Shown here: positions 8,587 through 30,150 of the stretch, piece by piece
Numbering within the stretch: position 1 is the stretch's first letter
Layout: every line of letters begins with the position of its first letter
Assembly: GCA_963848515.1 (NCBI GenBank)
Contig: CAWKEG010000021.1
Coordinates: 29,591 to 93,590 of the forward strand
Direction: 5' to 3'
Length of the DNA stretch: 64,000 nucleotides
Source of the DNA: an uncultured Acidobacteriaceae bacterium
GTDB lineage: Bacteria > Acidobacteriota > Terriglobia > Terriglobales > Acidobacteriaceae
Notes under the pieces: model-generated
What the model saw: the letters and a program-made list of their open reading frames with translations, nothing else
Database searches by the model: none
Told to the model about the DNA's origin: nothing
Position numbers and translations under genes: made by a program

Positions 8587-10941
8587 ATGACTGAACGTGG
8601 ACCGCTGTACGACCAGGATGAGACGCCGGAAGATGTGGCGACGCTCTATTCCTGGGCCAATCTGCACGGCGCCAAGTATCGCGATTTTTCTGCGTCGCGG
8701 GCGCAGACGCGGGAGAAGGCGCGGTTGCGCGTGCAGCAGGCGATAGACGAAGAGCAGGCGCGGGCGCAGCAGGCAGCGGGAGCGGAACAGCCGGCGGAAA
8801 TCAACAATCTTGCAGACGTGGAACGCGCGGCGGAGATGCGGCGTCTGGCCGAGCAGGCACGGGCGGCCGAACAGGCGCGCATTGAGGAATTGGCGGCGCA
8901 GCAGGCGGCACTTGAAGCAGCCCAGCAGGCGGCACGCGATGCAGCCGACAAGGCGGCGCGGGAAGCAGGCGAAGCGGCGGCACGTGAGGCAGCAGAGCAG
9001 AAGGCACGCGAAGCGGCGGCGGAAGCTGCGCGCCAGGCAGCAGAGCAGGCTGCGCAAAGAGCAGCGGAGCAGGCAGCGCGCGTGGCAGCAGAAGACGCGG
9101 CACGCCGGGCTGCGGAAGCGGCAGCGCAAAGAGCAGCGGAGCAGGCGGCGGCGCAGGAGGCCGCACAAAGAGCTGCGGAAGCGGCAGCGCGCCAGGCTGC
9201 AGAAGAAGCAACGCGCCGAGCGGCGCAGGAGGCGGCGGAGCGAGCGGCAGAAGAGATAGCTCGCCGGACCGCGCAGCTTGCAGCGCAACAGGCAGCGGAG
9301 AGAGAAGCAGAGCAGGCGGCACGCGTGGCGGCGGAAAAGGCCGCGCAACAATTGGCCGAGCAAAGACTGGCTGCGCAGAGAGCGGCGCAGGAGGCCCAGT
9401 TGCAGGCTACGCGACTGGCAGCGGAGAAGGCTGCGCAACAGTTGGCTGCGCAACGGGCAGCGCTGCAGGCGCAGGCGGCCAAGGACGCTGCTCAGCGGGT
9501 TGCTGAAGAGGCCGCTCGGCAGGCAGAGCAACAGGCTGCGCGGCAGGCCGCCGAACAGGCTGCACAGCAACGGGCCGCGCAACTTGCGGCGGAACAAGCT
9601 GCTCATGAAGCCGCAGAACAGGCAGCGCGCGAGGCAGCGGAACGGGAGGCGCAACTGGCCGCAGAGCTAGCGGCGCAAGAGGCGGCGGAACGAGTCGCGC
9701 TGGAAGCAGCGCAGCGGGAAGCGCAGCAAAGGGCTCATGCGGAGCGCCTGGCTGCCGCGATGGCTGCGGAGGCTGCGCGGGCGACCTCACAACCAGCCGC
9801 ACCTTACTCCCCGCCCAAGCGCGATTACGCTGGACGCGATTTCCCAGGACACGATTACCCAGGGCACGATTTTCCGGGCTATGTTCCTCCTCCGGCTCAT
9901 GCGCCAGTTGAGAGCCAGCCGCAGGCTTCGGCGAAACACGAAGACAGCTATGCGCTGCCGCGCAATCCATGGGCAGCAGGCGATCAAGGCGAACATGCGG
10001 GTCGTCCGGCCTGGTTGATGCCGGACCGCGCGGAAGCCGCGCCTCCGCCGCCCATGCCTCAGGCCCCTGAAGATACACTGCAGGGCTCGCGGGATCGGCT
10101 GGCTTCACGCTGGTATGCGTTGCGGGGAGTTTTTGAAGGAGCGGGTGCGCAGGCGGAGGCGGTTCCGGCTCCGGTGGCGGCGCGCGCTCCGGTGGTGGCC
10201 ATCTTCTCGCTGGCCGGCGGCGTTGGCAAGACCAGCCTGGTGGCAACGCTGGGACGGGCACTCTCGGCACGCGGGGAGCGGGTTCTGCTGGTGGATACGG
10301 CGCCTTACGGATTGCTGCCGTTCTTCTTTGGCGCGCGCGATCAGCGGCCGGGGTTGCTGAGGACCTTCAGCCCTCCGGGCAATAGCGGCGATGCACCGAT
10401 CCAGATGGTGACGATCGACCCAGAGGGATTGGGTCCGGACTCGGCGAACCAGGATGCGCTGTCGGGAGAGATCACGACGTATTCGCGCGGCGCGAGCCGC
10501 GTGATTGTGGATTTGGCGACGGCCTCGGGTGCAACGACGCGGCGGGTTTTGCGGCTGGCGCCGCTGGTGCTGGTGCCGCTCGTGCCGGACATGAATTCGG
10601 TGGTCAGCTTCAGTTCCATCGACAGCTTCTTTCAACACAATGGAAACGCTCAAGCTAAACCGCCGCTGCCGTTCTATGTGCTGAACCAGTTCGATCCTTC
10701 GCTTCCGCTGCACCTGGATATTCGTGAAGTGCTTCGCGAGCAGTTGGGCGACCGTCTGCTGCCGTTTGTTCTTCGCCGCACGCCGGCGGTGAGCGAGGCG
10801 CTGGCCGAGGGGATGACGGTGATGGACTACGCGCCCAACTCCACCGTAGCTGAGGATTTCGGCAGCCTTGCCGGATGGGTGAAGAGCCAATCGGCTGCCG
10901 CGAGCAGCACCTATCGCGGAGTGCGCTGGAGTGAACGATGA
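8587..10941 (+). CDS. bcsQ: Cellulose biosynthesis BcsQ (MinD/ParA-like ATPase) fused to a BcsR/BcsP-like N-terminus and a long Ala/Glu/Gln/Arg-rich linker
   Basis: Walker A SLAGGVGKTS, VIVDL and EALAEG in the C-terminal ~250 aa; N-terminal DVATLYSWANLHGAKYRDFS; ATGA overlap with bcsA. Confidence 0.85.
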   Translation: MTERGPLYDQDETPEDVATLYSWANLHGAKYRDFSASRAQTREKARLRVQQAIDEEQARAQQAAGAEQPAEINNLADVERAAEMRRLAEQARAAEQARIEELAAQQAALEAAQQAARDAADKAAREAGEAAAREAAEQKAREAAAEAARQAAEQAAQRAAEQAARVAAEDAARRAAEAAAQRAAEQAAAQEAAQRAAEAAARQAAEEATRRAAQEAAERAAEEIARRTAQLAAQQAAEREAEQAARVAAEKAAQQLAEQRLAAQRAAQEAQLQATRLAAEKAAQQLAAQRAALQAQAAKDAAQRVAEEAARQAEQQAARQAAEQAAQQRAAQLAAEQAAHEAAEQAAREAAEREAQLAAELAAQEAAERVALEAAQREAQQRAHAERLAAAMAAEAARATSQPAAPYSPPKRDYAGRDFPGHDYPGHDFPGYVPPPAHAPVESQPQASAKHEDSYALPRNPWAAGDQGEHAGRPAWLMPDRAEAAPPPPMPQAPEDTLQGSRDRLASRWYALRGVFEGAGAQAEAVPAPVAARAPVVAIFSLAGGVGKTSLVATLGRALSARGERVLLVDTAPYGLLPFFFGARDQRPGLLRTFSPPGNSGDAPIQMVTIDPEGLGPDSANQDALSGEITTYSRGASRVIVDLATASGATTRRVLRLAPLVLVPLVPDMNSVVSFSSIDSFFQHNGNAQAKPPLPFYVLNQFDPSLPLHLDIREVLREQLGDRLLPFVLRRTPAVSEALAEGMTVMDYAPNSTVAEDFGSLAGWVKSQSAAASSTYRGVRWSER
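8720..9785 (+). repeat. Coding low-complexity helical repeat (AAEQAARxA-like)
   Basis: ~350 codons of imperfect A-A-E/Q-Q/E-A-A-R/Q repeats; proline is absent after the first few residues. Confidence 0.9.
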
Positions 10942-13900
10942 CCGCATCGGGCCTTTGGCAGGACATTGGGGCAGGGGAGAATTTTTTCACCAGGCTCCTG
11001 CGCCTGATTTTCCTGCTGGCAGCGGCGGCGTGCTTCTGCTTTCTCGCGATTTTGCCGCTGACCTGGCCGCAACAGGCGGTGCTGGGGTTGCTGACTTTGC
11101 TGATGGCGCTGGCCATGGCGCGCAGCTCCGACTCCTACCTGGTGACGCTGACCCTGATGATGATGTCGATGTTCTGCACGTTTCGCTATGGATACTGGCG
11201 CATCATGCAGGTGGTGCAGTTTTTTCAGGATCCGGCGAGTCACTGGGGCGCGCTGGATGTGTTTTTCATCATGTGCCTGCTGCTTGCCGAGGCGTATGCA
11301 TTTTTGATTTTGTTTCTCGGATACTTCCAGACGATCTGGCCGTTGCGGCGCGCGCCGGTGTCGCTGCCTGAGAATACGGACGACTGGCCGCATGTCGATG
11401 TCTTGATTCCGACCTATAACGAGCCGCTGGATGTGGTGCGCTACTCGGCGCTGGGCGCGATGAACATGGATTGGCCGGCGGACAAGATCCATATCTATGT
11501 TCTGGACGACGGGCGCAGGAAAGCGTTTGAGCGATTTGCGTTCGAGGCCGGCATCGGTTACAAGACCCGGGCTGACAATGCGCACGCCAAGGCGGGCAAC
11601 ATCAACGCCGCGCTGAAGACGCTGAGTTCGCCGCTGGTGGCCATCTTCGATTGCGATCACGTGCCGACGCGCAGCTTTCTGCAGATGACGGTGGGCTGGT
11701 TTTTGCGCGACCGCAAGCTGGCGATGCTGCAGACGCCGCACCATTTTTATTCTCCCGATCCTTTTGAGCGCAACCTGGAACAGTTTCGCGTGATTCCCAA
11801 CGAGGGCGAACTGTTCTATGGAGTCGTGCAGGACGGCAACGACTTCTGGAACGCGTCGTTCTTTTGCGGCTCGTGCGCGGTGCTGCGGCGGACGGCTCTC
11901 GATGAAGTGGGCGGCATCGCGGTCGAGACAGTGACGGAGGACGCACACACCTCGCTGCGCATGCAGATGAACGGCTGGGGCACGGCTTACGTGAATATTC
12001 CGCAGGCGGCCGGGCTGGCGACGGAAAGTCTGTCGGCGCACGTGGGCCAGCGCATTCGCTGGGCGCGGGGCATGATCCAGATTCTGCGCACCGACAACCC
12101 GCTGTTTGCACCGGGGCTGACGTTTGCGCAGCGCCTGTGCTACTTCAACGCGATGTGCCATTTTCTGTACGCGGTGCCGCGGCTGATCTTTTTGACCGCG
12201 CCGCTGATTTATCTTTTGCTGAACCACACCAATATTCCCGGCTACTGGGCGGCGATTCTGGCCTATGCGCTGCCTCACCTGACGCTTTCAAACGTGACCA
12301 ACTCGAGGATTCAGGGCGAGCACCGTCACTCTTTCTGGAACGAGATTTACGAGACGGTATTGTCGCCGTATATTCTGCTGCCGACCATGATGGCGTTGAT
12401 CAATCCCAAGCTGGGCAAGTTCAACGTGACCTCAAAGGGCGGCGTGGTGAAGCGCACCTTCTTCGACACGCGGATAGCGCAGCCGTTTCTGGTGATGCTG
12501 CTGTTCAACATTGCGGGGCTGATCGTGGCGATTCCGCGCTTCTTTATCTGGGACAGGGACCGTCCGGGCACGGTGATGATGAACGTGCTCTGGTGCTGCT
12601 TCAATGTTGTGATTCTGGGCGTGTGCACGGCGGTGGCGCGGGAGCTGAAGCAGTTGCGGACTACGGTGCGTATCAGCGTGGTTACCCCCGTTGTGGCCAG
12701 AATGCCGGACGGAAGGCGGATCAGCGGAGAGACAATCAACATGTCCAGTGGTGGCACCAGCATCCGCCTGAATGAGGCGATTGAAATCGCGCCATTGACT
12801 GAGGTGCGCCTGGCGTTTCCGGCGCCGGCCGCGGGAACCGAGATGCATGCGTCAGTCATGTCCTGCGAGGGATCGGTGCTGCGCGTGCGGTTTGAGAATT
12901 TATCGATTGCCGAAGAGGAAGTGTTGACGATGGTGCTTTATTCACGAGCAGACTCGTGGCTTGGCTGGGGTGAAGCACGCGAAAGCGATAACGTGCTGGT
13001 CAGCCTTGGACGCATTTTCCGGATATCGATGCATGGACTTGCCTCGACCTTCAGAAGCCTGTTTACCGACAAGGACGACGACGACCGGAAGGCGAGCTCG
13101 CTTTCCATTGCGCGCAGTTCGGTGATCTTCATCTTGGCCGCGCTTCTGATGGGCGGCGGGCAACACCTGCGCGGACAGGCGCAGCACGCGGCAGTTGCGG
13201 CAAAGACCGCGGCCAAAGCCGACGCTCCCCTTGGCCCTGGGCACTACAAGGACACGTTCTCGCTGAACGACGCCGGCTCGCCGCAGATTGAACTGCATGG
13301 CATCGACAGCATGCACAATATTTATTTCACGCTGCCCGAGACCCACGTTGTGAAGACGGCAAAGATTCACGTCTACTATGCATTTTCTCCGAGCCTGTTG
13401 CCGCAGTTGAGTCATCTGAAGCTGATTCTGAATGGAACGCTGTTTGCCACCATCCAGCCGACGCCGGGGCAGGTGGGCGGCTCCGACAGCCGCGATGCGG
13501 AGGCGGAGTTCACCATTCCGACGGATCTGCTGGTGCACAACAACACGCTGACCATCGAGTTCATCGGGCACTACACGATGGTTTGCGAGGACCCGGCTAA
13601 TACGACGCTTTGGGCACGCGTACATCGCACGACGTTTCTCGATATTGAGGGCGACCTGCTGCCACTGGCCGACGACCTGAAGCAGTTGCCGATTCCGTTT
13701 CTTGATCCGGCCGTGATTCAGCCTCTCAGCATACCGGTGGTTTTTGCAGGCACGCCCAGCTACAAGGCGATCCAGGCGGCGGGCATCGTGACCAGCTACT
13801 TCGGCATGCTCTCTGAAAACAGGCCGGTGCGTTTTCCAGTTCATTTTGGAGCTATTCCGCAAGGCAATGCAATCGTGATTGCGGACAATGCGGCGAATCT

Positions 13901-15350
13901 TCCCGCGGGGCTTGGCCTGCCCAGCATCAGCCTGCCGACCGTGGCCATGCGCACCAATCCCAACGACCAGTACGGCAAGATTTTGATTGTGACCGGCGGC
14001 GACGCCGACCAGCTTTTGATTGCGGCCCAGGCCGTGGCCTTGCACAGCGACATGCTGTCCGGCGGACTGGCCAGCATTGACAGCATCAAGCTGCCGGAGA
14101 AGCAGGGACCCGATACAGCGCCGCGCTGGGCACGCACCGATCAGACGATTCCGCTGTGGGATTACGCATTGTCCGATCAATTGCAGGGCGACGGCACTGC
14201 GCCCTTGAATGTCTACTTCCGCATTCCTCCCGACATTTTTTATGCCGACCGACCCAATGCGGTGCTGAAGCTGGTGTATCGCTACAATTCGATTCCGATC
14301 GGACCAATCTCGAGCCTCCAGGTGCGGGTCAACAACGCGTTTCTCGGATCGACACCGCTGATACCCGGGCAAGAGGCTTCGCGCAAGATGGAGACCGAGG
14401 TTCCGGTGCCGGTCGTGAATCTGCGGCCGTTCTCGAACTCGCTTTCCTTCGACTTCACTTTTCAATTGCTGAAAAAGGGAGGCTGCGAGGACACGACGCC
14501 GATCAATATGCAGGGCTCGATTCTGCGCGACTCGTACCTTGATCTGCGCGGCTATCCGCACTACGCGCCGCTGCCGAACCTGGAAACATTTGCCAACGCG
14601 GGGTTCCCGTTTACGCGCTTTGCCGATCTCGGCGAGACCACCGTTGTGCTTCCGCCCACGCCCACCGAGCAGGAGATCGAGACCTTCGTTACGCTGATGG
14701 GACACTTCGGCCGGCAAACGGGCTATCCGGGACTGCGCGTGACCGTGGCGGGGCCGGATGCGCTGCACCTGGGCGCGAGAACGGATTTTCTGATTCTGGG
14801 CACAGGGGACGATCAGCCGGGATTCGACCAGTTGAACAACACCCTCCCGGTTGCCTTGCGCAGCGGCCAGATTCAGGTGCGCGATACGCAGGGATTTTTT
14901 GCGCCGCTGCATCAGGCATGGTGGAAGCTCCGCTCCGACGAGCACTCCGAGTCCGGCGACCTGACCGCCTCCGGCACGCCTGACGCGGTGATTGAGGGAG
15001 TGGAATCGCCGTTCGATCCGGGCGCGGGCCGCAGCATTGTTGCCATTCACCTGAGGGATGCGAGCGCCTTCGAGCCTTTCATGGACACGTTCATAAAGAT
15101 TCAACAGTCGAGCGATGTCTCGGGCTCGGTTTCGGTTTTGCATGGGACGCAGTTCCAATCCTTCAGGATCGGCGCAGCGGTTTATCACGTGGGCGCGGTG
15201 CCATGGTGGACGCGACTGCGGCTTTGGCTCCGGCAGGTTCCGTGGCTGATCGCGGTGATCGTGGTGATTCTGGCGCTGCTTGTTTCGCTGTGGACAAGGC
15301 AGTGGCTGAGGGGCAGGGCCCGGTCGCGTCTGAGGATGATTGAGGACTGA
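10938..15350 (+). CDS. bcsA: Cellulose synthase BcsA-BcsB fusion (GT2 + PilZ + BcsB periplasmic domains)
   Basis: PTYNE, DDG, HAKAGN, FDCDH, QTPH, FFCGS, TED and QRIRW; PilZ RTTVR...NMSSGG; BcsB-like C-half (LDLRGYPHYAPLPNL...ANAGFPFTRFADL) with a terminal TM. Confidence 0.95.
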   Translation: MTASGLWQDIGAGENFFTRLLRLIFLLAAAACFCFLAILPLTWPQQAVLGLLTLLMALAMARSSDSYLVTLTLMMMSMFCTFRYGYWRIMQVVQFFQDPASHWGALDVFFIMCLLLAEAYAFLILFLGYFQTIWPLRRAPVSLPENTDDWPHVDVLIPTYNEPLDVVRYSALGAMNMDWPADKIHIYVLDDGRRKAFERFAFEAGIGYKTRADNAHAKAGNINAALKTLSSPLVAIFDCDHVPTRSFLQMTVGWFLRDRKLAMLQTPHHFYSPDPFERNLEQFRVIPNEGELFYGVVQDGNDFWNASFFCGSCAVLRRTALDEVGGIAVETVTEDAHTSLRMQMNGWGTAYVNIPQAAGLATESLSAHVGQRIRWARGMIQILRTDNPLFAPGLTFAQRLCYFNAMCHFLYAVPRLIFLTAPLIYLLLNHTNIPGYWAAILAYALPHLTLSNVTNSRIQGEHRHSFWNEIYETVLSPYILLPTMMALINPKLGKFNVTSKGGVVKRTFFDTRIAQPFLVMLLFNIAGLIVAIPRFFIWDRDRPGTVMMNVLWCCFNVVILGVCTAVARELKQLRTTVRISVVTPVVARMPDGRRISGETINMSSGGTSIRLNEAIEIAPLTEVRLAFPAPAAGTEMHASVMSCEGSVLRVRFENLSIAEEEVLTMVLYSRADSWLGWGEARESDNVLVSLGRIFRISMHGLASTFRSLFTDKDDDDRKASSLSIARSSVIFILAALLMGGGQHLRGQAQHAAVAAKTAAKADAPLGPGHYKDTFSLNDAGSPQIELHGIDSMHNIYFTLPETHVVKTAKIHVYYAFSPSLLPQLSHLKLILNGTLFATIQPTPGQVGGSDSRDAEAEFTIPTDLLVHNNTLTIEFIGHYTMVCEDPANTTLWARVHRTTFLDIEGDLLPLADDLKQLPIPFLDPAVIQPLSIPVVFAGTPSYKAIQAAGIVTSYFGMLSENRPVRFPVHFGAIPQGNAIVIADNAANLPAGLGLPSISLPTVAMRTNPNDQYGKILIVTGGDADQLLIAAQAVALHSDMLSGGLASIDSIKLPEKQGPDTAPRWARTDQTIPLWDYALSDQLQGDGTAPLNVYFRIPPDIFYADRPNAVLKLVYRYNSIPIGPISSLQVRVNNAFLGSTPLIPGQEASRKMETEVPVPVVNLRPFSNSLSFDFTFQLLKKGGCEDTTPINMQGSILRDSYLDLRGYPHYAPLPNLETFANAGFPFTRFADLGETTVVLPPTPTEQEIETFVTLMGHFGRQTGYPGLRVTVAGPDALHLGARTDFLILGTGDDQPGFDQLNNTLPVALRSGQIQVRDTQGFFAPLHQAWWKLRSDEHSESGDLTASGTPDAVIEGVESPFDPGAGRSIVAIHLRDASAFEPFMDTFIKIQQSSDVSGSVSVLHGTQFQSFRIGAAVYHVGAVPWWTRLRLWLRQVPWLIAVIVVILALLVSLWTRQWLRGRARSRLRMIED

Positions 15351-15426: not shown

Positions 15427-15581
15427 GCACATTCCTCTTCTCCGTTGTCCCTGCACATCGTCTTTAACTCCATGGAAACAAGCTGTATGCTAGAGGAATA
15501 GATAGCGGTTACTCGAAGGGGCGCCTGGCCGGATTCCAATAGCGATCTGCCACGCGGGCCTCTTTGCCGAGGACTTGTGCG

Positions 15582-16754
15582 ATGGGCATTCGGAAGTCCC
15601 TGCGCGGGAAGTGTGTTCTGCCGATCGTGCTATTGTCGATGCTCTCTGCAACGGGCGGGTGCAAGCAGCATAATTGGGCGCTCTGGGACGCGTATTCTTC
15701 GCGATTCATCGATGCACAGGGCCGCGTATTCGATCCCAAAGGTGATCAACACACCACGTCGGAAGGTCAGGCGTACGCGATGTTCTTTGCGCTGGCCGGC
15801 GATGATCGCGCACACTTCGACAAATTGCTCAGTTGGACCCAAGGCAACCTGGCTCAGGGCGACCTCGGCACGCATCTGCCGGCATGGCTATGGGGAAAAG
15901 ACCCGAGCGGCGCGTGGAAGACGCTGGACGCAAACTCGGCATCGGATGCGGATGTCTGGATGGCTTACACGCTGGTGGAAGCGGGGCGGCTTTGGAACAA
16001 TCCGCAGTACACGAACCTGGGCAGCCGGATGCTTTCGCAGATTGCCGTCACCGAGGTGGCGAATCTTCCCGGTTTCGGCTTGATGCTGCTGCCGGGCCCG
16101 ACAGGTTTCCAGCACGATCAGACGTGGACGCTGAATCCGAGCTATCTTCCGGTTTTTGTCTTTCAGCGGCTGGGGCAGTTCGATCCGAAAGGACCCTGGC
16201 AGCAGATCGCGCTCAACATTCCGCACCTGCTTGAGCAGAGCGCGCGCCACGGCTACGCGATGGATTGGGTAGATTATTTTCCCGGTGACGGTTTTTATCC
16301 TGCGACCGTCGAGAAGCCAGGAAGCAGCAGCAGCGATGGCGCGGGCGGTGGGTATGACGCAATCCGCGTATATCTGTGGGCAGGCATGACGGACGACAGC
16401 CAGGGAGCGCGTACAGATTTGGTAAATTACGTTTCCGGAATGGGCGGATATCTTGCCGATCATGATGCCCCCCCGGAAAAGGTAAGTGACCTTGGCGTGC
16501 CGATGGCGCAAGATGGTCCTGTGGGATTCTCGGCGGCCCTGCTGCCGTATTTGAATGCATTTCCCAATTTCTCGAAGATCAGCATTCAACAGATGATTCG
16601 AATGAATCTGATGAAGGATGAGTCGACGGGTTTGTATGGGAAAGACCTAAGCTATTACGATCAGAATCTTGTGCTGTTCGCAACTGGTTTTCTGGACGGC
16701 AGATTCCGGTTTGGCCCAGGGGGCGAACTGAAAGTAGATTGGAAGCGCCGATGA
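15582..16754 (+). CDS. bcsZ: Endo-1,4-beta-glucanase BcsZ (GH8)
   Basis: TTSEGQAYAMFFAL, LPAWLWG, NSASDAD, NPSYLP, YDAIRVYLW and YYDQNL; lipoprotein-like signal; GAGGA RBS. Confidence 0.95.
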   Translation: MGIRKSLRGKCVLPIVLLSMLSATGGCKQHNWALWDAYSSRFIDAQGRVFDPKGDQHTTSEGQAYAMFFALAGDDRAHFDKLLSWTQGNLAQGDLGTHLPAWLWGKDPSGAWKTLDANSASDADVWMAYTLVEAGRLWNNPQYTNLGSRMLSQIAVTEVANLPGFGLMLLPGPTGFQHDQTWTLNPSYLPVFVFQRLGQFDPKGPWQQIALNIPHLLEQSARHGYAMDWVDYFPGDGFYPATVEKPGSSSSDGAGGGYDAIRVYLWAGMTDDSQGARTDLVNYVSGMGGYLADHDAPPEKVSDLGVPMAQDGPVGFSAALLPYLNAFPNFSKISIQQMIRMNLMKDESTGLYGKDLSYYDQNLVLFATGFLDGRFRFGPGGELKVDWKRR

Positions 16755-19700
16755 GGGTTGGTTGCGGGACGGGGAGCAGGATTCTAGTTGCAGCGGGGTG
16801 CCTTTTGCTGGCGCTCCCGGTCGGTCTTGCTCAAAAGAAACCCGCCGCCGGCGCGCATGAGGGCGAACGGGGCACGCTGATTGACAAGGCGCGGGCGCTG
16901 GAGTCGCGGGGCCGGCCGGATATGGCCGTTCAACTTTGGCAGCAGATTCTGCTTTCGCAGCCCAACAATGCTGACGCACTCGCCGGCGTGGCCAAAGACT
17001 ATAAATTGATGGGCGAGGCGGACAAGGCTGACGCGGCACTGGATCGTCTGCGCAGGGTAAATCCCAACGACCCGAATATTGCCAAAATCGAGGCGCTGAG
17101 CAGCTCGAGCGCTCAGAGCGACGAGCTGCGCCACGCAGGCGAGCTGGCCAGGCAGGGCAGGGCCGATGAGGCGATGCAGATTTATCGGCAGTTGTACGGC
17201 GAACATCCGCCGGAAGGGCCAGTTGCGATTGCCTACTATCAAACGCTGTTTGGCACGGCCAACGGCAAAGCTGCGGCGATTGCGGGGATGAGATCGCTGG
17301 CCGATCGCAATCCGGGCGACGCGAGCACTGCGGTGGCGCTGGGCACGCTGCTGACTTACGACGCCAAGACCCGGCCCGAGGGAGTGCGCATTCTTGAGGC
17401 GCATCCGCAGGATGCCGATGCGCAGGCGGCGCTGCGGCAGGCGCTGATATGGGACTCGGCCAATCCGGCTTCCGCTGCGGAGTTGCGCCAATATTTGAAA
17501 GAGCATCCTCAGGATACGGAAGTTGCCGCAAACCTGAAGTCGAGCGAACGGAAGCTTGCGCAAATGAACTCGGGGATTGCGCGCACGCCGGCCGAGCGCG
17601 CGGCCTTTGCAGCGCTCAACGCGCACCGGTTGGAGGATGCGCAGCAGCGATTCGAGGCCTTGTTGCAGAAGGAGCCGAAGAACGGACGCGTTGCGGCGGG
17701 CATGGGATTTCTGCGCATGCAGCAGAAAGATTTTGGCGGCGCCATCAGTTATCTGACCGAAGCGCAGCAGGACGGCTACACGGCGAGAACGGTCGAGAAT
17801 GCGCTTACGACTTCGCGCTTCTGGTTCACGATGGCCGAGGCAACGCAGGCCTTCAACGAGAATCAACTGGTCGCGGCCGAAGCAAAGTACAAGACAGCGC
17901 TGGGCATGAATGCCCGCAGCGCCGAAGCGTTGAATGGATTGGCTGGCCTGCTGACCAAAGAGCAGAAGTATGCGCAGGCGGCGAGCGTCTACGAGCAATT
18001 GATCAAGGTGCAGCCCAATAATCTGGACGGATGGCGCGGAGTCTTTCTCTCCTATGCGCGCGACCACCAGTACCAGAAGGCTCTTTCGACGGCGGGGCGC
18101 TATCCGGCGCGGGTGAGACTGGCTTTGGCCAGGGATCCGGAGTACTTGAGCTCGCTGGCAAGCATCTATGAGGCGCAGGGGCGGAGCGCGGATGCCGAAC
18201 ACGTGTTGGCGCAGGCGCTGGCGCTGCCATTCCCCGACAACGGGACGAGCCTGAAGACGGATACAAAGCTGCAATACGCGGGCATCCTGATGGAGGCTAA
18301 ACGCTACGAGCAGGCCGCGGCGTTGTATACGCAAATACTCAACGAAGATCGAAACAACCTGTCGGCGTGGCTCGGCCTGGTGAGCGCGCATCACGGGCTG
18401 GGGCAGGATACGCTGGCCATCACGGACGTGCAGAAGATGCCTCCGGCGACGTACGAGGCCGCGCTGGGCGATGCGGGATTTCTATCGCTGCTGGGCGCAA
18501 TCTATCAGCAGGCCAATCAGCTTGAAGTGGCGCAAGGATTGCTGGAGCGGTCCGAGAAGCTGCAGACTGCGGCGGGCGGGCAGCCCAGCGTTGCGCTCGA
18601 ACTGCAGTTGGCCGGCATCTACCTGCTGCGCAATAACACCGCGCAGGCTTACGACATTTATAGCCGGGTGCTCAAAGCCAATCCCGGAAGTGCCGATGCG
18701 TGGAAGGGTTTGATTTCAACGCTGGCCGCGACCAACCGAAATGCGCAGGCGCTTGAAGAGATCGCGATGATTCCCGCGCCGGTGCGCAAGCAGCTTGAGA
18801 GCGATATTGAATTCGAGCAGACCGAGGCGGGCGTGTACGCCACAAGCGGCGATACGGCTCATGCCGTGGAATACATGAACCGCGTGCAGGCGCATTACGC
18901 GCGGCTCAAGATGCAGCCGCCGGCGAATGTAGACATCCAGAACGCGTGGCTGCTCTACAACACCGGCAACGACCGCGCTCTTTATCCTGCGCTGATGCGG
19001 CTGGGGAGCCGGAACGATCTCTCCGTCGCGCAGCGAGAGACGGTTCAGAACATCTGGGCCAACTGGAGCGTCCGCCGTGCCGCGGCGGCGATGGAGAACG
19101 GCAACATGCGTCGCGCGGTCGATATTTTGGATGCGGCTTCGCAGGCATTCCCAAACAACCTGACAGTGCGCAAGGCAGTGGCCGGTGGATTTGCGCGTGT
19201 GGGCCGCGCGAAGGAGTCGCTGGCGCTCTTCAAAGCGATTCCCATGCAGGATGCGAGCTCGGGCGATTTTCAAGGCGCGATTGGCGCGGCGCTGCAGGCA
19301 AACGACCGGAGCCAGGCTGAGTTGTGGTTGCGCCAGGCGCTGGAGCGGTTTCCGAACGACCCGGCGATTTTGTCGCTTGGGGCGCGTTACGAGCAGGCAC
19401 GCGGCGACAACGAGCGCGCTGCGGATTACTGGCGCGCGGCGCTGGCGGCCATGCCGGCGGCTACGCCCGTTGACAGGCTTGCGCACCAGTTGGCCTATCC
19501 CGAGCAGGATACAAAATCGCATCGCGCAGTAACGGCGGCCGATTTGCAGAACCTGCTCGATCCTGAGAACGAGCCTTTTGCGAAGACAACCAAGGTGCCG
19601 CCGCTGCCCGCATACGGGCCCGACCCTTATAACGGACCCGTGCCGGTAATGATCCCGCAGCCGCAGTCGTATGCGCCGCGGGCGGCAGACGCGGCGGGCA

Positions 19701-22700
19701 GAAACGCTTCTTCATCGAATGCCGGCCAGCCCGACGCGAATCCGCAGATCAAAGCGATTCCGTCGTCGCAGACGGCAAGTCCGCAACGGTTCCAGCAGCA
19801 GAGCGCGACGCGGATGGAAGCTGGAGATTCAGGTTGGAGCCAGGCGGGCTTTGGCGGATTGGTGGTTCGCGACGCGGTCTACCATCCGCAGGATCGAGTC
19901 TTGCGATTCGGTGCAACGGCGACGCCTCAGCGAGTTTATGACGCAAGCGGAGCAGCTTCGGCAGAGTTCGAACAAGCGCAGTATGCGAGCCAGGCAGACG
20001 TGCCGATCGCAGCGAACGCGCCGCATTCGATGGCATCCGACGCATGGAAGGGACTGGTCTTCTCGTTGATGGCGGGGAATCGCAACACAGAGGCGCTCGC
20101 AACGCTGAACAAGATTCCGCCGGATGTGCGTCGTCAACTGGAGAGCGATATCGAGTTTGTGCAGGGCGTCGCCAGCTTGTATGTGGCCGTGGGCGATGCG
20201 GCAATGGCGCGTGACTATTTGAACCGCGTGGAGAACTACTATCTGCTGCACCGGTCGGCTGCGCCGGCGGGTCTTGAAGTGCAACACGCGTGGCTGCTCT
20301 ATAACCTGAAGGATGACGTCTCTTTGTATCCGCTGATGCTGCGCCTGGATGCGCGCCCGGATTTGAGCGCGGCCGAGCGAGCGCAGTTGGATTCATTGTG
20401 GGCCACCTGGGCCGTGCGCCGTGCTGAGACTGCGATGAATGGAGGCAATCTTCTGCGCGGCGTGGAGATTTTGCAGGCTGCATCGAAGGATTACCCGGAC
20501 AATCTGGATGTGCGCAGAGCGGTGGCCGGTGCGTATGCACGAGTCGGGCGCGCTGCCGACGCGGTCACTCTTTTCAAAACGATTTCGATGGAGAACGCGA
20601 CCTCCGGCGATTACCAGGGAGCGATTTCGGCGGCTCTCGGCGCGACGGACATGGCGCAGGCCGAAGCCTGGTTGCGCCAGGCGTTGGCACGTTTCCCGAG
20701 CGATCCGAAGGTGCTGGGGCTTGCCGCACGATTCGAGCAGGCACGCGGCAACAATGAACGCGCCGCGGACTACTGGCGCGCTGCGCTGGCGACCATGCCT
20801 GCTGACTCGGCGGTCAAAAGTCTCGATAGCGGGCTCGGTTATCCGGCTGGATCGATCGCGCCCGCTGCGCCGGGAGACACAAAGCGATTGCTCGACCCGC
20901 GGCACGAGCCGGCAGCGAACAGTTTGCCGCCGTTGCCTGCCTATCCAACGGCTGATGCGAACCGTGCGCCGGTGGGCCTGGCCGGCCCACCCGCGGAATC
21001 CGCACCGCAGCATCAATGGCTCAACGCGCCGTCGAACGATCCACTGCCCATGCCTGGCGGGACGGGAGCGAACATTGTTCCGTTGCCGAATGCGCAGGGA
21101 ATCGCACCAGTGTACTCTCCGCAAAACGCGCAACAAGGAACGTCGGTGGCGCAGCCGGTGTTGATCCAGCAGAGTTGGACGCACCTGGTGACGACATGGC
21201 CGGAGGTGAGTGCAACTCATAGACGGAAGAAGGCTCATCGGCATCCTTCGACGTATGGCGCTTCGGCGCGGACACGGTCCGCTGCTAGAGCCAGGACCGC
21301 TGCGAGGGCCCGCGCCGCCGCAAGAGGACGAACGACGCTGCGTGCCAGGGCTGCATCCGGTACGCGAATGGCGCCGAGTGCAAGGACAGCCGCGAGTCCC
21401 CATCGTTATGCAGGCACGGTGAAGCTGCCGCCCTCGGAGCAGACCATCGCTTCGACGGAGGCGACAGTTGCAGCGCCAGGATTGCGGATCGCATCCGCGC
21501 CCATGGGACCGCTGGCAGCGCAGGTAAACGCCCGGTTTGCCGAAGAGACCGACAGCCAATTGACGCAGGGTTCGGCCGCGGTCATTCACACGCTGGCGAA
21601 TGCGCCGGTTAATGCGCAAATCCAGATGGGCGCGGCGCAGGTTCCGGCTGCTGCGACCGACGGTCAATACACGCAGGCGCAATATACGCCGTCTGCCCAG
21701 GAAGCAGCCACGGGCGCCTATTCGGTGCCGAGAAAACCTGCTGAAACCACGCCCGAGAAGCCTGCCGCGTCGACGCCGCGGACGTATGCGCATAAGAAAA
21801 CCCGTAAAAAAAGCAAACGAGCAATGCAGCAGGCCAGCCAGCCAACGAACGCGACGCTGGGCAATACGCCCGCACTGAGCAACGCACCGCAGACGCCTGC
21901 GGCTGAAAACGCGCAGCAGAACCAAACCTACGATGCGCAGTCTCCCGCGCCAACCTCAACGGGCGGGGGTTTGTCCGACGAGGAACTGGAGCAGAGGAAT
22001 CTGCCTCCGCTGCGCGGGCCATGGGTGCGCGTGCAGCGCGAGCCCAAACCCGTCAGTCCGCGTGAAGAGGCGGAGATGCAGTTGCGCACCATCGAGAGCG
22101 GCTACAGCGGCTGGCTCGGCGGCACGGGCTACATCAACTACCGCAGCGGCGCGCTGGGCTTTGACCACTTGTCGGCGCTTGAGTCACCGTTTGAAGCGTC
22201 CGCACCACTCGGGTACAACGGCCGGGTCACCCTTGTGGTCAAGCCCGTGTTCCTGGACTCCGGTCAGGCCGACGGCAGCGCGACGATCTCGGTAACGCAG
22301 TCGACGACGGGCGGCAATCAACTGGTTTCCATTCCCGAGCCCATCGGCACCCTGACCACGACCGACGTTAACCCGCCGGCGCAGCAAAACGCGGTCGGCT
22401 TTGGCGGCGAGGTGCAACTTGCGTTTCCTCACGCGGCAATTGCCGGCGGATACACACCGTACGGATTCCTGGTTTCGACCTTCACGGCTCGCGGCATGTT
22501 CCGGCCTGGCAACGGGCCCGTCACCATCACTGTCGCGCGCGACTCAGTCAAAGACAGCCAGCTCTCTTACAGCGGACTGCGCGACCCGGCGGGCGACACG
22601 CTTGGCAACCAGGGACAGATCTGGGGCGGCGTAGTTGCCAACCAGGGCAACGTGCAATTCTCGCGCGGCGACGCGATGTCTGGGTTCTACGTGGGCGCGG

Positions 22701-23293
22701 GCGGCCAGTACCTGACCGGCTATCACGTCGAAAACAATACGCGCATCGATGGGAACGGCGGCGCGTATTGGCGGCTGATGACTTCGCCGGAGAATGGCAA
22801 CCTGAGCATCGGCGTCAACTTTTTTGCAATGCATTACGCCAACAACGAGAACGCGTTTACGCACGGCATGGGCGGATACTTCAGTCCGCAGGGCTACTTC
22901 CTGGCCAATGTGCCGTTCACGTTCGTGGGCCACTACGGAACCAACTGGCACTACAACGTTGTGGGCGGGCTGGGCGTGCAGGCCTTCCAGGAAAACAAAA
23001 CGCCGCTGTGGCCGCTGGCCGGTGACAAGGCAATTGAGACAGGCCAGAACAATCCTATGCTGCCGGATGTGACCAACGTCGGGCCGAACTACGATTTGCG
23101 CGGCCAGGTGTCTTACCAGATCAGTCCGCACTGGTTTGCAGGTGGATTCTTCGGTGCGAACAATACGCGCAACTACTCGTCGGCCTCGGCAGGATTCTCG
23201 ATCCGCTACATGTTCCGCGAGCAGCCGTCCACGGCGACCGAGCCAACGGGGATCTTCCCTAGCGACGGCTTGCGGCCGTTTACGGTGCCGTAG
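16751..23293 (+). CDS. bcsC: Cellulose export outer-membrane protein BcsC (TPR + beta-barrel), unusually long
   Basis: Signal peptide; TPRs; C-terminal barrel with GGYFSPQ motif; position after bcsZ with ATGA overlap. Confidence 0.9.
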   Translation: MRVGCGTGSRILVAAGCLLLALPVGLAQKKPAAGAHEGERGTLIDKARALESRGRPDMAVQLWQQILLSQPNNADALAGVAKDYKLMGEADKADAALDRLRRVNPNDPNIAKIEALSSSSAQSDELRHAGELARQGRADEAMQIYRQLYGEHPPEGPVAIAYYQTLFGTANGKAAAIAGMRSLADRNPGDASTAVALGTLLTYDAKTRPEGVRILEAHPQDADAQAALRQALIWDSANPASAAELRQYLKEHPQDTEVAANLKSSERKLAQMNSGIARTPAERAAFAALNAHRLEDAQQRFEALLQKEPKNGRVAAGMGFLRMQQKDFGGAISYLTEAQQDGYTARTVENALTTSRFWFTMAEATQAFNENQLVAAEAKYKTALGMNARSAEALNGLAGLLTKEQKYAQAASVYEQLIKVQPNNLDGWRGVFLSYARDHQYQKALSTAGRYPARVRLALARDPEYLSSLASIYEAQGRSADAEHVLAQALALPFPDNGTSLKTDTKLQYAGILMEAKRYEQAAALYTQILNEDRNNLSAWLGLVSAHHGLGQDTLAITDVQKMPPATYEAALGDAGFLSLLGAIYQQANQLEVAQGLLERSEKLQTAAGGQPSVALELQLAGIYLLRNNTAQAYDIYSRVLKANPGSADAWKGLISTLAATNRNAQALEEIAMIPAPVRKQLESDIEFEQTEAGVYATSGDTAHAVEYMNRVQAHYARLKMQPPANVDIQNAWLLYNTGNDRALYPALMRLGSRNDLSVAQRETVQNIWANWSVRRAAAAMENGNMRRAVDILDAASQAFPNNLTVRKAVAGGFARVGRAKESLALFKAIPMQDASSGDFQGAIGAALQANDRSQAELWLRQALERFPNDPAILSLGARYEQARGDNERAADYWRAALAAMPAATPVDRLAHQLAYPEQDTKSHRAVTAADLQNLLDPENEPFAKTTKVPPLPAYGPDPYNGPVPVMIPQPQSYAPRAADAAGRNASSSNAGQPDANPQIKAIPSSQTASPQRFQQQSATRMEAGDSGWSQAGFGGLVVRDAVYHPQDRVLRFGATATPQRVYDASGAASAEFEQAQYASQADVPIAANAPHSMASDAWKGLVFSLMAGNRNTEALATLNKIPPDVRRQLESDIEFVQGVASLYVAVGDAAMARDYLNRVENYYLLHRSAAPAGLEVQHAWLLYNLKDDVSLYPLMLRLDARPDLSAAERAQLDSLWATWAVRRAETAMNGGNLLRGVEILQAASKDYPDNLDVRRAVAGAYARVGRAADAVTLFKTISMENATSGDYQGAISAALGATDMAQAEAWLRQALARFPSDPKVLGLAARFEQARGNNERAADYWRAALATMPADSAVKSLDSGLGYPAGSIAPAAPGDTKRLLDPRHEPAANSLPPLPAYPTADANRAPVGLAGPPAESAPQHQWLNAPSNDPLPMPGGTGANIVPLPNAQGIAPVYSPQNAQQGTSVAQPVLIQQSWTHLVTTWPEVSATHRRKKAHRHPSTYGASARTRSAARARTAARARAAARGRTTLRARAASGTRMAPSARTAASPHRYAGTVKLPPSEQTIASTEATVAAPGLRIASAPMGPLAAQVNARFAEETDSQLTQGSAAVIHTLANAPVNAQIQMGAAQVPAAATDGQYTQAQYTPSAQEAATGAYSVPRKPAETTPEKPAASTPRTYAHKKTRKKSKRAMQQASQPTNATLGNTPALSNAPQTPAAENAQQNQTYDAQSPAPTSTGGGLSDEELEQRNLPPLRGPWVRVQREPKPVSPREEAEMQLRTIESGYSGWLGGTGYINYRSGALGFDHLSALESPFEASAPLGYNGRVTLVVKPVFLDSGQADGSATISVTQSTTGGNQLVSIPEPIGTLTTTDVNPPAQQNAVGFGGEVQLAFPHAAIAGGYTPYGFLVSTFTARGMFRPGNGPVTITVARDSVKDSQLSYSGLRDPAGDTLGNQGQIWGGVVANQGNVQFSRGDAMSGFYVGAGGQYLTGYHVENNTRIDGNGGAYWRLMTSPENGNLSIGVNFFAMHYANNENAFTHGMGGYFSPQGYFLANVPFTFVGHYGTNWHYNVVGGLGVQAFQENKTPLWPLAGDKAIETGQNNPMLPDVTNVGPNYDLRGQVSYQISPHWFAGGFFGANNTRNYSSASAGFSIRYMFREQPSTATEPTGIFPSDGLRPFTVP

Positions 23294-23593: not shown

Positions 23594-24577
23594 GTGACTC
23601 TGATCAGCTTTCTCGCCAAGCAGTTCATCGATGTTATTGAGTGGAATGAGCCGGAAGACGGCATTCTGACCTATCGCTATCCGATGCAGGATCTCGAGAT
23701 CCAGAACGGCGGCCAGCTTACGGTAAGCGAGTCGCAAATGGCGGCCTTCGTCAACGAAGGGCGCATTGCGGATGTCTTCGGGCCCGGCCTCTACACACTC
23801 AACACGCGCAATCTGCCCATCCTGACCGATCTGATGAACTGGGACAAGGACTTCGAGTCGCCCTTCAAGTCAGAGGTCTACTTCTTTTCCACGCGCTTGC
23901 AGATGGATCAGAAGTGGGGCACGGCTACCTCGATCACTATCCGCGACAAGGAGTTTGGCGCCGTCCGGCTGCACTGTTACGGAATCTACTCTTACCGCAT
24001 CGTTGATCCCCGCGTCTTTTTCAACCAGGTGAGCGGCACACGCGACGTCTACTTTACCGCGGACCTCGACGGCCAGCTGCGGGATACGATTCTGGCCAAC
24101 ATCGCGCCGATCTTCGCTAACAGCGGCATCTCCTTCCTCGACCTGACGGCAAGCCAGGCGCTGCTTGCCGATAAAATTGCCGAACAGATCAAGCCCACGT
24201 TTACCTCGCTGGGTCTGGAGCTGGACCGTTTCGTAGTTGAGAACATCTCGCTGCCCGAGGAGCTCTCGAAGGTCCTGGATCAGCGCATCGGAATGGGCAT
24301 GGTGGGCGATGTGGGCCGCTATACGCAATACGCCGCGGCTGAGTCGCTCGACCTAGCGGCGGCGAACACTGGCGGCGGCGCTGGTGTCGGCATGGGGCTT
24401 GGCGCGGGAGCAGCAGTTGCGCAGGTGCTTGCGACGTCATTGAAGTCGTCCGCGGTCTCGCCCGTTGCGCAGGCTGCGCCGGCTGTCCCCGCGACCGATA
24501 CCAAGTTCTGCATCAACTGCGGCCAGCCCATTCCTGCGAGCGCAAAATTTTGCGCGGAGTGCGGGAAGGCCCAGTGA
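23594..24577 (+). CDS. SPFH/Band-7-like protein with C-terminal zinc ribbon (YdjI-like)
   Basis: FIDVIEW, QKWGT, IRDKEFG and FCINCG...FCAECG double zinc ribbon. Confidence 0.85.
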   Translation: MTLISFLAKQFIDVIEWNEPEDGILTYRYPMQDLEIQNGGQLTVSESQMAAFVNEGRIADVFGPGLYTLNTRNLPILTDLMNWDKDFESPFKSEVYFFSTRLQMDQKWGTATSITIRDKEFGAVRLHCYGIYSYRIVDPRVFFNQVSGTRDVYFTADLDGQLRDTILANIAPIFANSGISFLDLTASQALLADKIAEQIKPTFTSLGLELDRFVVENISLPEELSKVLDQRIGMGMVGDVGRYTQYAAAESLDLAAANTGGGAGVGMGLGAGAAVAQVLATSLKSSAVSPVAQAAPAVPATDTKFCINCGQPIPASAKFCAECGKAQ

Positions 24578-28743: not shown

Positions 28744-30150
28744 TCAGCCCACCTCTACGGGATGCCGGACGTCTTCCGCAACGGCAACTGGAAGAGTGAA
28801 GCGGAACGTGGCTCCGTGGCCGAGGCGGCTCTCGACGGCGATCTGGCCGCCGAGCGACTCGACCAAACGCCGGACCAGCGCCAGGCCGAGGCCCGTACCC
28901 TGGTCAGAGAAAGTGTTGAAGCGGTCGAAGATGGTGCTGAGCCTGTCTGCCTCGATGCCGCGGCCGGTGTCGCGCACGGTGAACTGGACAACGTTCTTCA
29001 TCTCCTCGGCGGCGAGCAGGATTTCGCCGTCCTGCGGCGTATAGCGAATCGCGTTCGAAAGCAGGTTGTCGAGGATGGAACGCAGGGCGCGCCTGTCGGC
29101 TTTGACGACGGAGAGGTCGGCGTAGGCATTCACTTCCACGCGAATGTGTTTCTCCGTCGCTTCATCGCAATAGCGGTCGCGAGCCTCGCCCAGAGCCTGC
29201 AACGGCCTGAGCCGCTCGAGCTTGAGTTCGCGCTTGCCGGAATCGAGCTCGGCAACTTCGATCAGGTCGCGCATCAGGTCGTCCAGCTTCTCGGTCTCGT
29301 TGCTGGCCGAGGCTACCAGCTCAGCCTGCAAGGGAAGCAGTTCGCCGCCGAAGCCCTGGTTGAGCGCATAAAGACCGCGGCGCAACTGGAGGAGCGGGCC
29401 GCGCAGCTTGCGGCTGGCGACCGCGATAAATTGTGTTTTGAAGCGGTCGGTATCCTGCAGCGAGGTGACATCTTCAAGCGTTGTGACGGTGCCGAGCAGG
29501 CGGCCTTCGGAGTCGCGCATGGGCGTGGTGCGGAGCCGGAAGCTGCGCTCCTGTTTGCCGATGCGCATGGGCAGCATGGAGGCTTCATCTTCAGTGGCCA
29601 CGGCCTTTTGCATGGAGACGGCGTCGCGAATGGCGCTCAGAATCTTGTCGCCTCCGGGGGTATTGGTAAGCGCCATGCGGTCTGTGGCGGCCTCACCCAG
29701 CAGCTCTGCGGCAGCCGGGTTGACCTTGAGTACGTGGCCTTTGCCGTCGGTAACGATGATGGGCTCAAAGATGGATTGAAGCACGGCATCGGAGAGTTGA
29801 AACTCCATCTGGCGTCGGCCGGCCTCGGAGTCGCGCAGTTCGCGGAGACGAACGGCGATGCGGCTCAGCTCGCCGGCCAGAATGCCGAAGTCGTCGCGGC
29901 TGCTCCACTCCACGCGGTGCTCGAGATTGCCCTGGGCGATGCGGTGGGCGTCGCGCGCCAACATGCGGATAGGGGAAAGCACAAAGTAGACGGTCGCGAT
30001 TTCAACCAGCAACGCGGCCACGATGAAGCCGTAAGCCAGGGTGGTTTGGCCGGCAGCGGCAAGGGCGCGATGGGTAAGTGCCACGAGCCCTGCCGTAAGG
30101 CAGGCGAGTAGCACACAGCCGATAACAAGTCGCTGGGAAAGGTTGAGCAT
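28744..30150 (-). CDS. Membrane HAMP-PAS histidine-kinase-like protein lacking the phospho-acceptor His
   Basis: Two TMs, HAMP, PAS; H-box reads ASRKLRGPL; intact NLLSNAIRYT, DTGRGI and GTGLGL. Confidence 0.85.
   Translation of the reverse strand: MLNLSQRLVIGCVLLACLTAGLVALTHRALAAAGQTTLAYGFIVAALLVEIATVYFVLSPIRMLARDAHRIAQGNLEHRVEWSSRDDFGILAGELSRIAVRLRELRDSEAGRRQMEFQLSDAVLQSIFEPIIVTDGKGHVLKVNPAAAELLGEAATDRMALTNTPGGDKILSAIRDAVSMQKAVATEDEASMLPMRIGKQERSFRLRTTPMRDSEGRLLGTVTTLEDVTSLQDTDRFKTQFIAVASRKLRGPLLQLRRGLYALNQGFGGELLPLQAELVASASNETEKLDDLMRDLIEVAELDSGKRELKLERLRPLQALGEARDRYCDEATEKHIRVEVNAYADLSVVKADRRALRSILDNLLSNAIRYTPQDGEILLAAEEMKNVVQFTVRDTGRGIEADRLSTIFDRFNTFSDQGTGLGLALVRRLVESLGGQIAVESRLGHGATFRFTLPVAVAEDVRHPVEVG

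Follow-up and report, generated by a model that had tools for sequence, protein, structure and literature searches.

The window analysed here is a 64,000-nucleotide stretch from an uncultured Acidobacteriaceae bacterium (positions 29,591 to 93,590 of contig CAWKEG010000021.1, GenBank assembly GCA_963848515.1), and it carries a bcs operon whose last gene encodes an unusually large BcsC in which a module of tetratricopeptide repeats (TPRs) is present twice. The protein is a BcsC, the outer-membrane component for cellulose export (a role predicted here from sequence), and the bacterium has relatives that NCBI labels Terracidiphilus sp. The best explanation, to which we give a probability of roughly 0.6, is that a single duplication took place within BcsC, that both copies were kept by selection, and that the second copy (module 2) does the job of the first (module 1) as a second station. 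An original prediction, made from the DNA letters without database searches, had described a giant BcsC in which a low-complexity linker lies between two colinear, paralogous TPR modules; the match to the BcsC barrel (E = 5e-83), the 54% identity between the modules and the composition of the linker all bear this out. Its coordinates lay within a few bases of the helical cores determined here (18689-19453 and 20033-20803), and the motifs that it quoted (AWKGL, ESDIEF, AWLLYN, WA.W.VRRA and RAADYWRAALA.MP) were found in both copies. Residues of BcsC are numbered throughout from the upstream TTG at 16739 (2184 residues).

The duplication emerged clearly when residues 1-1000 were compared with residues 1001-2184 by BLASTP: residues 651-959 aligned with residues 1099-1402, with 168/309 identical (54%), 71% positives and E = 7e-101. 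The strongest of the other TPR-to-TPR matches inside the protein reached 23% identity and an E value of 3e-4. A self-BLASTP of the entire protein returned the identity hit only, the internal match appearing after the protein had been split. The DNA of the first copy spans 18689-19615 and that of the second 20033-20944, offset by 448 codons (~1.34 kb); the two are 63% identical (50% at third codon positions), with a synonymous divergence (dS) of ~1.1 and a dN/dS of ~0.35. As the genome is a 22-contig draft, 94% complete, an assembly or annotation artefact had to be considered, through either the collapse or doubling of a repeat or the joining of two genes. This explanation is refuted: a DNA identity of 63% together with a dS of ~1.1 indicates an old duplication and not a collapsed or duplicated assembly, one uninterrupted reading frame takes in everything between the signal-peptide-like N-terminus and the barrel, and the same architecture is found in 13 complete two-module genes from other, independently assembled genomes of the genus and in all 120 of the 120 best database proteins.

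Single-module orthologues were colinear with the window's protein over residues ~5-1000 and again from ~1580-1650 to the end; the added piece therefore corresponds to residues ~1000-1580, and module 1 occupies the ancestral position. In the closest one-module protein (G227), the module is 67% identical over a stretch that includes module 1 and 49% identical to module 2. On these alignments we identify the copied block as the last 15 helices of the solenoid, the conserved LLDP...PPLPxY tail that follows them and part of the next linker, copied in tandem.

The two-module form, a BcsC whose single reading frame holds the 256-position module twice in full, is confined to one lineage. Exactly two modules were present in every one of the 120 best database relatives, the complete ones being ~2040-2295 residues long; NCBI gives several of them the label Terracidiphilus sp. 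Among 151 sampled genomes from 142 genera of the family, two modules in one frame occurred only in the window's genus, and 22 other genera had a single module. The BcsC proteins of these other genera share with the window's protein the operon, the solenoid, the module type with its LLDP...PPLPxY tail, a long linker and the barrel; they differ from it at residues ~1000-1580 and in length, with one module in stop-to-stop frames of ~1450-1990 residues against ~2020-2340 for two-module frames. When 401 genomes of the phylum and 251 of the class were sampled, the module and the BcsC barrel proved to be essentially confined to the family. Within the genus, the module was detected in 47 of 101 species, ~32 of which have two modules (some broken by stops or contig ends), 2 a truncated second module, 6 a single module of the same subtype and 7 only a divergent, short BcsC type; orthologues are thus by no means all single-module.

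A maximum-likelihood tree of 55 modules recovered a module-1 clade (support 93/84) and a module-2 clade (100/99) as sisters (99/91). The internal branching of the two clades was mirrored, the single-module proteins of the genus formed the next branch, and other genera fell outside. In an independent tree of the last 440 residues, which cover the pre-barrel segment and the barrel, the two-module proteins formed one clade (94/88), and hence one change of state suffices. Phylogenetically, the duplication is resolved as a single event in the ancestor of one subclade of the genus, with vertical inheritance since then.

Both copies have been conserved after this event. Among 18 species pairs with dS below 1, the median omega was 0.19 in module 1 and 0.25 in module 2. 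The 120 proteins have 89 positions at which module 1 and module 2 carry the same residue with a conservation of 90% or more (5 Trp and many Arg among them), and only 7 at which the copies are fixed for different residues. Both copies are under purifying selection and keep essentially the same conserved core and surface; with 89 shared near-invariant positions against 7 differently fixed ones, the two probably have the same function. The alternative that module 2 has acquired a new partner, such as BcsZ, peptidoglycan or another envelope component, would be consistent with its faster evolution, with the seven sites fixed differently and with a tail that is less conserved after module 2 than after module 1. 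We consider such neofunctionalisation improbable, given how few those sites are beside the 89 that are shared and given that no new domain or motif was seen in module 2.

Structure predictions suggest that the second copy stands apart from the solenoid. In an AlphaFold (AF2) model of residues 36-960, which is all-helical with a mean predicted local distance difference test score (pLDDT) of 83, residues 36-905 form a continuous solenoid of ~52 helices, the last 15 of which are module 1. Each module was modelled as 15 helices with pLDDT ~80-90 (~80 for module 2), and the linkers had values of ~30. In the models, module 2 is a free-standing TPR block, like a bead on a string, and does not continue the solenoid; because the flanking linkers are weakly conserved, gappy and at pLDDT ~30, it is predicted not to be a rigid prolongation of the solenoid. 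A block containing KRLLDPRHEP after module 2 reached pLDDT 71, compared with ~30 on either side, which hints that this tail motif packs against the TPR module. Foldseek searches with both models returned generic TPR superhelices, for example CTPR, OGT, Ctr9 and Ski3.

The original prediction had read the great length of the protein as a longer, envelope-spanning conduit adapted to a wider periplasm or to the export of several glucan chains, in step with a long BcsQ. The count of helices (~52 before linker 1 and 15 in module 2, against 19 TPRs in E. coli; PMC11379886) and the occurrence of long BcsCs throughout the family would agree with a rigid conduit of this kind. It is nevertheless very unlikely, since low-complexity, weakly conserved stretches on both sides of module 2 interrupt the solenoid, single-module sister species exist within the genus, and two species have lost most of module 2 in frame. 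The proposed parallel with BcsQ also fails, as the length of BcsQ, given here as upper bounds from stop-to-stop frames, shows no parallel with module number (485, 538 and 784 residues in three two-module genomes, 383-892 residues in eight single-module genomes). No result obtained here supports a longer, rigid conduit or the export of several chains. That the protein is far longer than E. coli BcsC is correct (the NCBIfam model has 1157 positions and the PDB chain 1146 residues), and the duplication accounts for ~450 of the ~1030 residues by which it exceeds the E. coli protein. The remainder is not due to the duplication and consists of extra TPR helices in the solenoid and a long pre-barrel linker, both of which are already present in single-module relatives.

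The assignment to the BcsC family rests on both ends of the protein. The C-terminal barrel matched PF05420 (BCSC_C) with 279.5 bits against a cut-off of 23.5, residues 1810-2160 covering model positions 2-336 of 336, and the barrels of PDB 6tzk and 9b8a were matched at E ~1e-17. Several TPR families were also matched. The NCBIfam equivalog for E. coli-type BcsC, NF008520, aligned residues 23-722 to model positions 8-703, and PDB 9b8a aligned residues 46-729 to 19-696. The equivalog cut-off was not reached (240.7 bits versus 858), a shortfall that fits the name 'BcsC-related outer membrane protein' given by NCBI to the relatives; the protein is a divergent branch of the BcsC family and not the enterobacterial equivalog. 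The exopolysaccharide exporters PgaA, PelB and AlgK/AlgE likewise lead from a periplasmic TPR array to an outer-membrane barrel, with other barrel families and other polymers, and weak matches to PgaA models were obtained at the TPR level.

The closest known system is E. coli BcsC (full length, PDB 9B8A/9B8H; TPR19 and barrel, PDB 6TZK; Verma et al. 2024, PMC11379886), with which the window's protein shares a signal-peptide-like N-terminus, a colinear TPR solenoid of ~700 residues and a BCSC_C barrel, and which is likewise encoded in a bcs operon with BcsA, BcsB, BcsZ and BcsQ. E. coli BcsC has 1157 residues, 19 TPRs and a short linker between TPR19 and the barrel (PMC11379886), whereas the window's BcsC has ~52 helices before linker 1, a free-standing 15-helix module, and low-complexity linkers of ~120 and ~330 residues. 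The first ~70 residues of the module are colinear with E. coli positions up to ~703, around TPR17-18, and this is the sole placement available. The pore-proximal TPRs 16-19 of E. coli BcsC contact a putative cello-oligosaccharide, and the E. coli system also provides a precedent for a flexibly attached periplasmic domain (PMC11379886). No alignment was obtained between the E. coli linker Trp766 and the Trp of the pre-barrel segment, phmmer having aligned the barrel only.

By analogy with this system, module 2 would most likely be a second glucan- or partner-binding station. The duplicated block is the pore-proximal end of the acidobacterial solenoid, and module 2, performing the same job as module 1, would bind the nascent glucan, or a periplasmic partner, during transit to the pore, as TPRs 16-19 may do in E. 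coli. It would serve as an extra hand-over point in the long tether that joins solenoid to pore in all BcsCs of the family, and it may be helpful without being indispensable.

Several observations weigh against this proposal. In two species (G209, L056, C5:389500-404500; G244, L057, C247:1-16000), an in-frame deletion has removed most of module 2 along with part of linker 2 and left the gene otherwise intact; alignments to the query skip from residue ~1175 to ~1612 and from ~1177 to ~1579 in these two. Nonsynonymous change is ~1.5 times faster in module 2 than in module 1, and module 2 has the longer stem branch in the module tree (0.20, against 0.043 for module 1). Owing to the in-frame loss and the faster evolution, the contribution of module 2 may be small. 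The second AF2 model, of module 2 with linker 2 and the barrel, for which only 14 sequences were available, left the barrel unfolded (pLDDT ~30). E. coli BcsC was not matched in the PDB by module 2 alone, by the module profile or by residues 460-960, generic TPR proteins being the only matches, and because the module is placed by the colinearity of its first ~70 residues only, equating it with the TPRs that contact the cellotetraose is an analogy.

The in-frame deletions, the faster change and linkers that vary highly in length and sequence among relatives would also be expected of a tolerated passenger, that is, a duplication fixed by drift in an insertion-tolerant linker whose product folds and adds little or nothing to export. 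This is the main rival to a second station, and we regard it as possible though unlikely. An omega of ~0.25 persisting across species pairs with dS up to ~1, the 89 near-invariant positions in common with module 1, and the retention of full-length copies in ~32 sampled species and in all of the 120 best database proteins argue for selection on module 2 and against a passenger.

The anatomy of the protein (Table 1) was drawn from a conservation profile of 108 full-length relatives, from composition and from two AF2 models. The order of domains is a solenoid that includes module 1, a low-complexity linker, the free-standing module 2, a longer low-complexity linker and the barrel. The query residue was common to 73-83% of the aligned relatives in the tail after module 1 and to 15-38% in linker 1, where gaps amounted to 14-35%. 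Conservation was 0.63 in the 30-residue block of residues 1081-1110, which includes the short stretch 5' of module 2 (residues 1081-1098) and part of the module. The motif LLDP..(E/D)P ... PPLP.Y is kept after both modules across the clade.

Table 1. Features of bcsC and its operon partners in the window (nucleotide positions in the window; residues counted from the TTG at 16739)
Feature	Position	Strand	Description
Signal-peptide-like N-terminus (MRVGCGTGSRILVAAGCLLLALPVGLAQ)	16751..16834	+	Hydrophobic, ends in AQ; read by eye from the translation
N-terminal TPR solenoid	16844..18688	+	Residues 36-650; colinear with E. coli BcsC (NF008520, PDB 9b8a)
TPR module 1	18689..19453	+	Residues 651-905; 15 helices; ancestral position; more conservative copy
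Conserved tail after module 1	19454..19618	+	Residues 906-960 (55 residues); motif LLDP..EP....PPLPAY
Linker 1	19619..19978	+	Residues 961-1080; Ala/Pro/Gln/Ser-rich, variable in length, weakly conserved
Short conserved stretch 5' of module 2	19979..20032	+	Residues 1081-1098
TPR module 2	20033..20803	+	Residues 1099-1355; 15 helices; added, faster-evolving copy
Tail after module 2	20804..20968	+	Residues 1356-1410; LLDPRHEP....PPLPAY; less conserved than the tail after module 1
Linker 2	20969..21958	+	Residues 1411-1740; low-complexity, net charge +18
Conserved pre-barrel segment	21959..22165	+	Residues 1741-1809; query residue common to ~76% of relatives
C-terminal outer-membrane beta-barrel (BCSC_C)	22166..23290	+	PF05420; PDB 6tzk, 9b8a
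bcsC	16751..23293	+	2180 residues from ATG; last gene of the bcsQ-bcsAB-bcsZ-bcsC operon
bcsQ	8587..10941	+	Operon partner; long N-terminal extension
Fused bcsA-bcsB	10938..15350	+	GT2, PilZ and BcsB domains
bcsZ	15564..16754	+	GH8 endoglucanase; stop overlaps bcsC start

Linker 2 contains an Arg/Ala-rich basic tract at 21221-21419 (residues ~1495-1560) that is an expansion specific to this genome: its position is a gap in 95% of relatives, and the closest relatives have a short HKRKKAHKAH...RAR patch there. An 18-nucleotide tandem repeat of 2.7 copies lies within the tract at 21279-21326. A frameshift origin of the tract was rejected, as both other frames contain stops and close relatives carry the shorter basic patch at the same place.

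The open frame encoding BcsC extends over 16739-23293 on the forward strand (2184 codons). Translation probably begins at the ATG at 16751, whose overlap with the bcsZ stop reads ATGA; the resulting protein has 2180 residues, as does the database entry for the window's protein (P0002). Genes for BcsQ, the fused BcsAB and the GH8 enzyme BcsZ lie immediately upstream on the same strand. The same bcsQ-bcsAB-bcsZ-bcsC locus is known in Granulicella, Terriglobus, Acidobacterium and Acidisarcina (PMC9693552). BcsQ has 784 residues in total, with the ATPase domain confined to residues 536-764; in the upstream regions of 11 genomes (L045-L055), the length of the N-terminal extension differs greatly among close relatives and the ATPase part is conserved. 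In one of these genomes (G175, L053), the BcsA and BcsB parts are two frames, of 760 and 762 residues, and there is no fused gene. The same strand encodes, immediately 3' of bcsC (23594-24577), an SPFH/Band-7 protein that has a zinc ribbon at its C-terminus.

Two further observations concern bcsC in the relatives. The gene is broken by stops or frameshifts, through either decay or draft-assembly error, in several genomes of the genus (for example G215:C12, G167:C4, G232:C14, G217:C12, G242:C1 and G181:C5). In Acidisarcina polymorpha and in Acidobacterium capsulatum, bcsC has been described as a pseudogene, and a related acidobacterium that is reported to produce cellulose has a bcsC with this same annotation (PMC9693552). 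The second, divergent and shorter BcsC type of the family (~1485-1535 residues, module E ~1e-50; L039-L041, L043 and L044; for example G155:C3, G208:C23 and G106:C7) coexists with the main type in G155 and G106.

A broader speculation, which we hold to be doubtful, is that cellulose may cross the periplasm of these bacteria via a flexible relay of glucan-binding stations, in the manner of beads on a string, and not through one continuous solenoid docked on the pore. The join between solenoid and pore would then be a disordered tether only (~200-450 residues), which in the Terracidiphilus-like clade would hold an autonomous second module, and the LLDP...PPLPxY tails could act as intramolecular or partner-binding peptides for TPR grooves.

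Full-text literature searches returned no description of a duplicated BcsC module. The finding amounts to a variant architecture, specific to one lineage, within a well-known protein family, and not to a new kind of machine; in other respects it is an ordinary case of a repeat protein that gained a domain by duplication, and its interest is modest. It shows that the great length of acidobacterial BcsC has no single event behind it and consists mostly of low-complexity tethers and extra TPRs. Among the core parts of the bacterial cellulose secretion machinery, BcsC is understood least, and ideas on the path of the glucan between BcsB and the pore still depend on a single putative cellotetraose density in E. 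coli. The series of one-module, two-module and partly re-deleted proteins within one genus offers a natural comparison for the role of the pore-proximal TPRs, and it bears on whether these repeats need to be fixed to the barrel.

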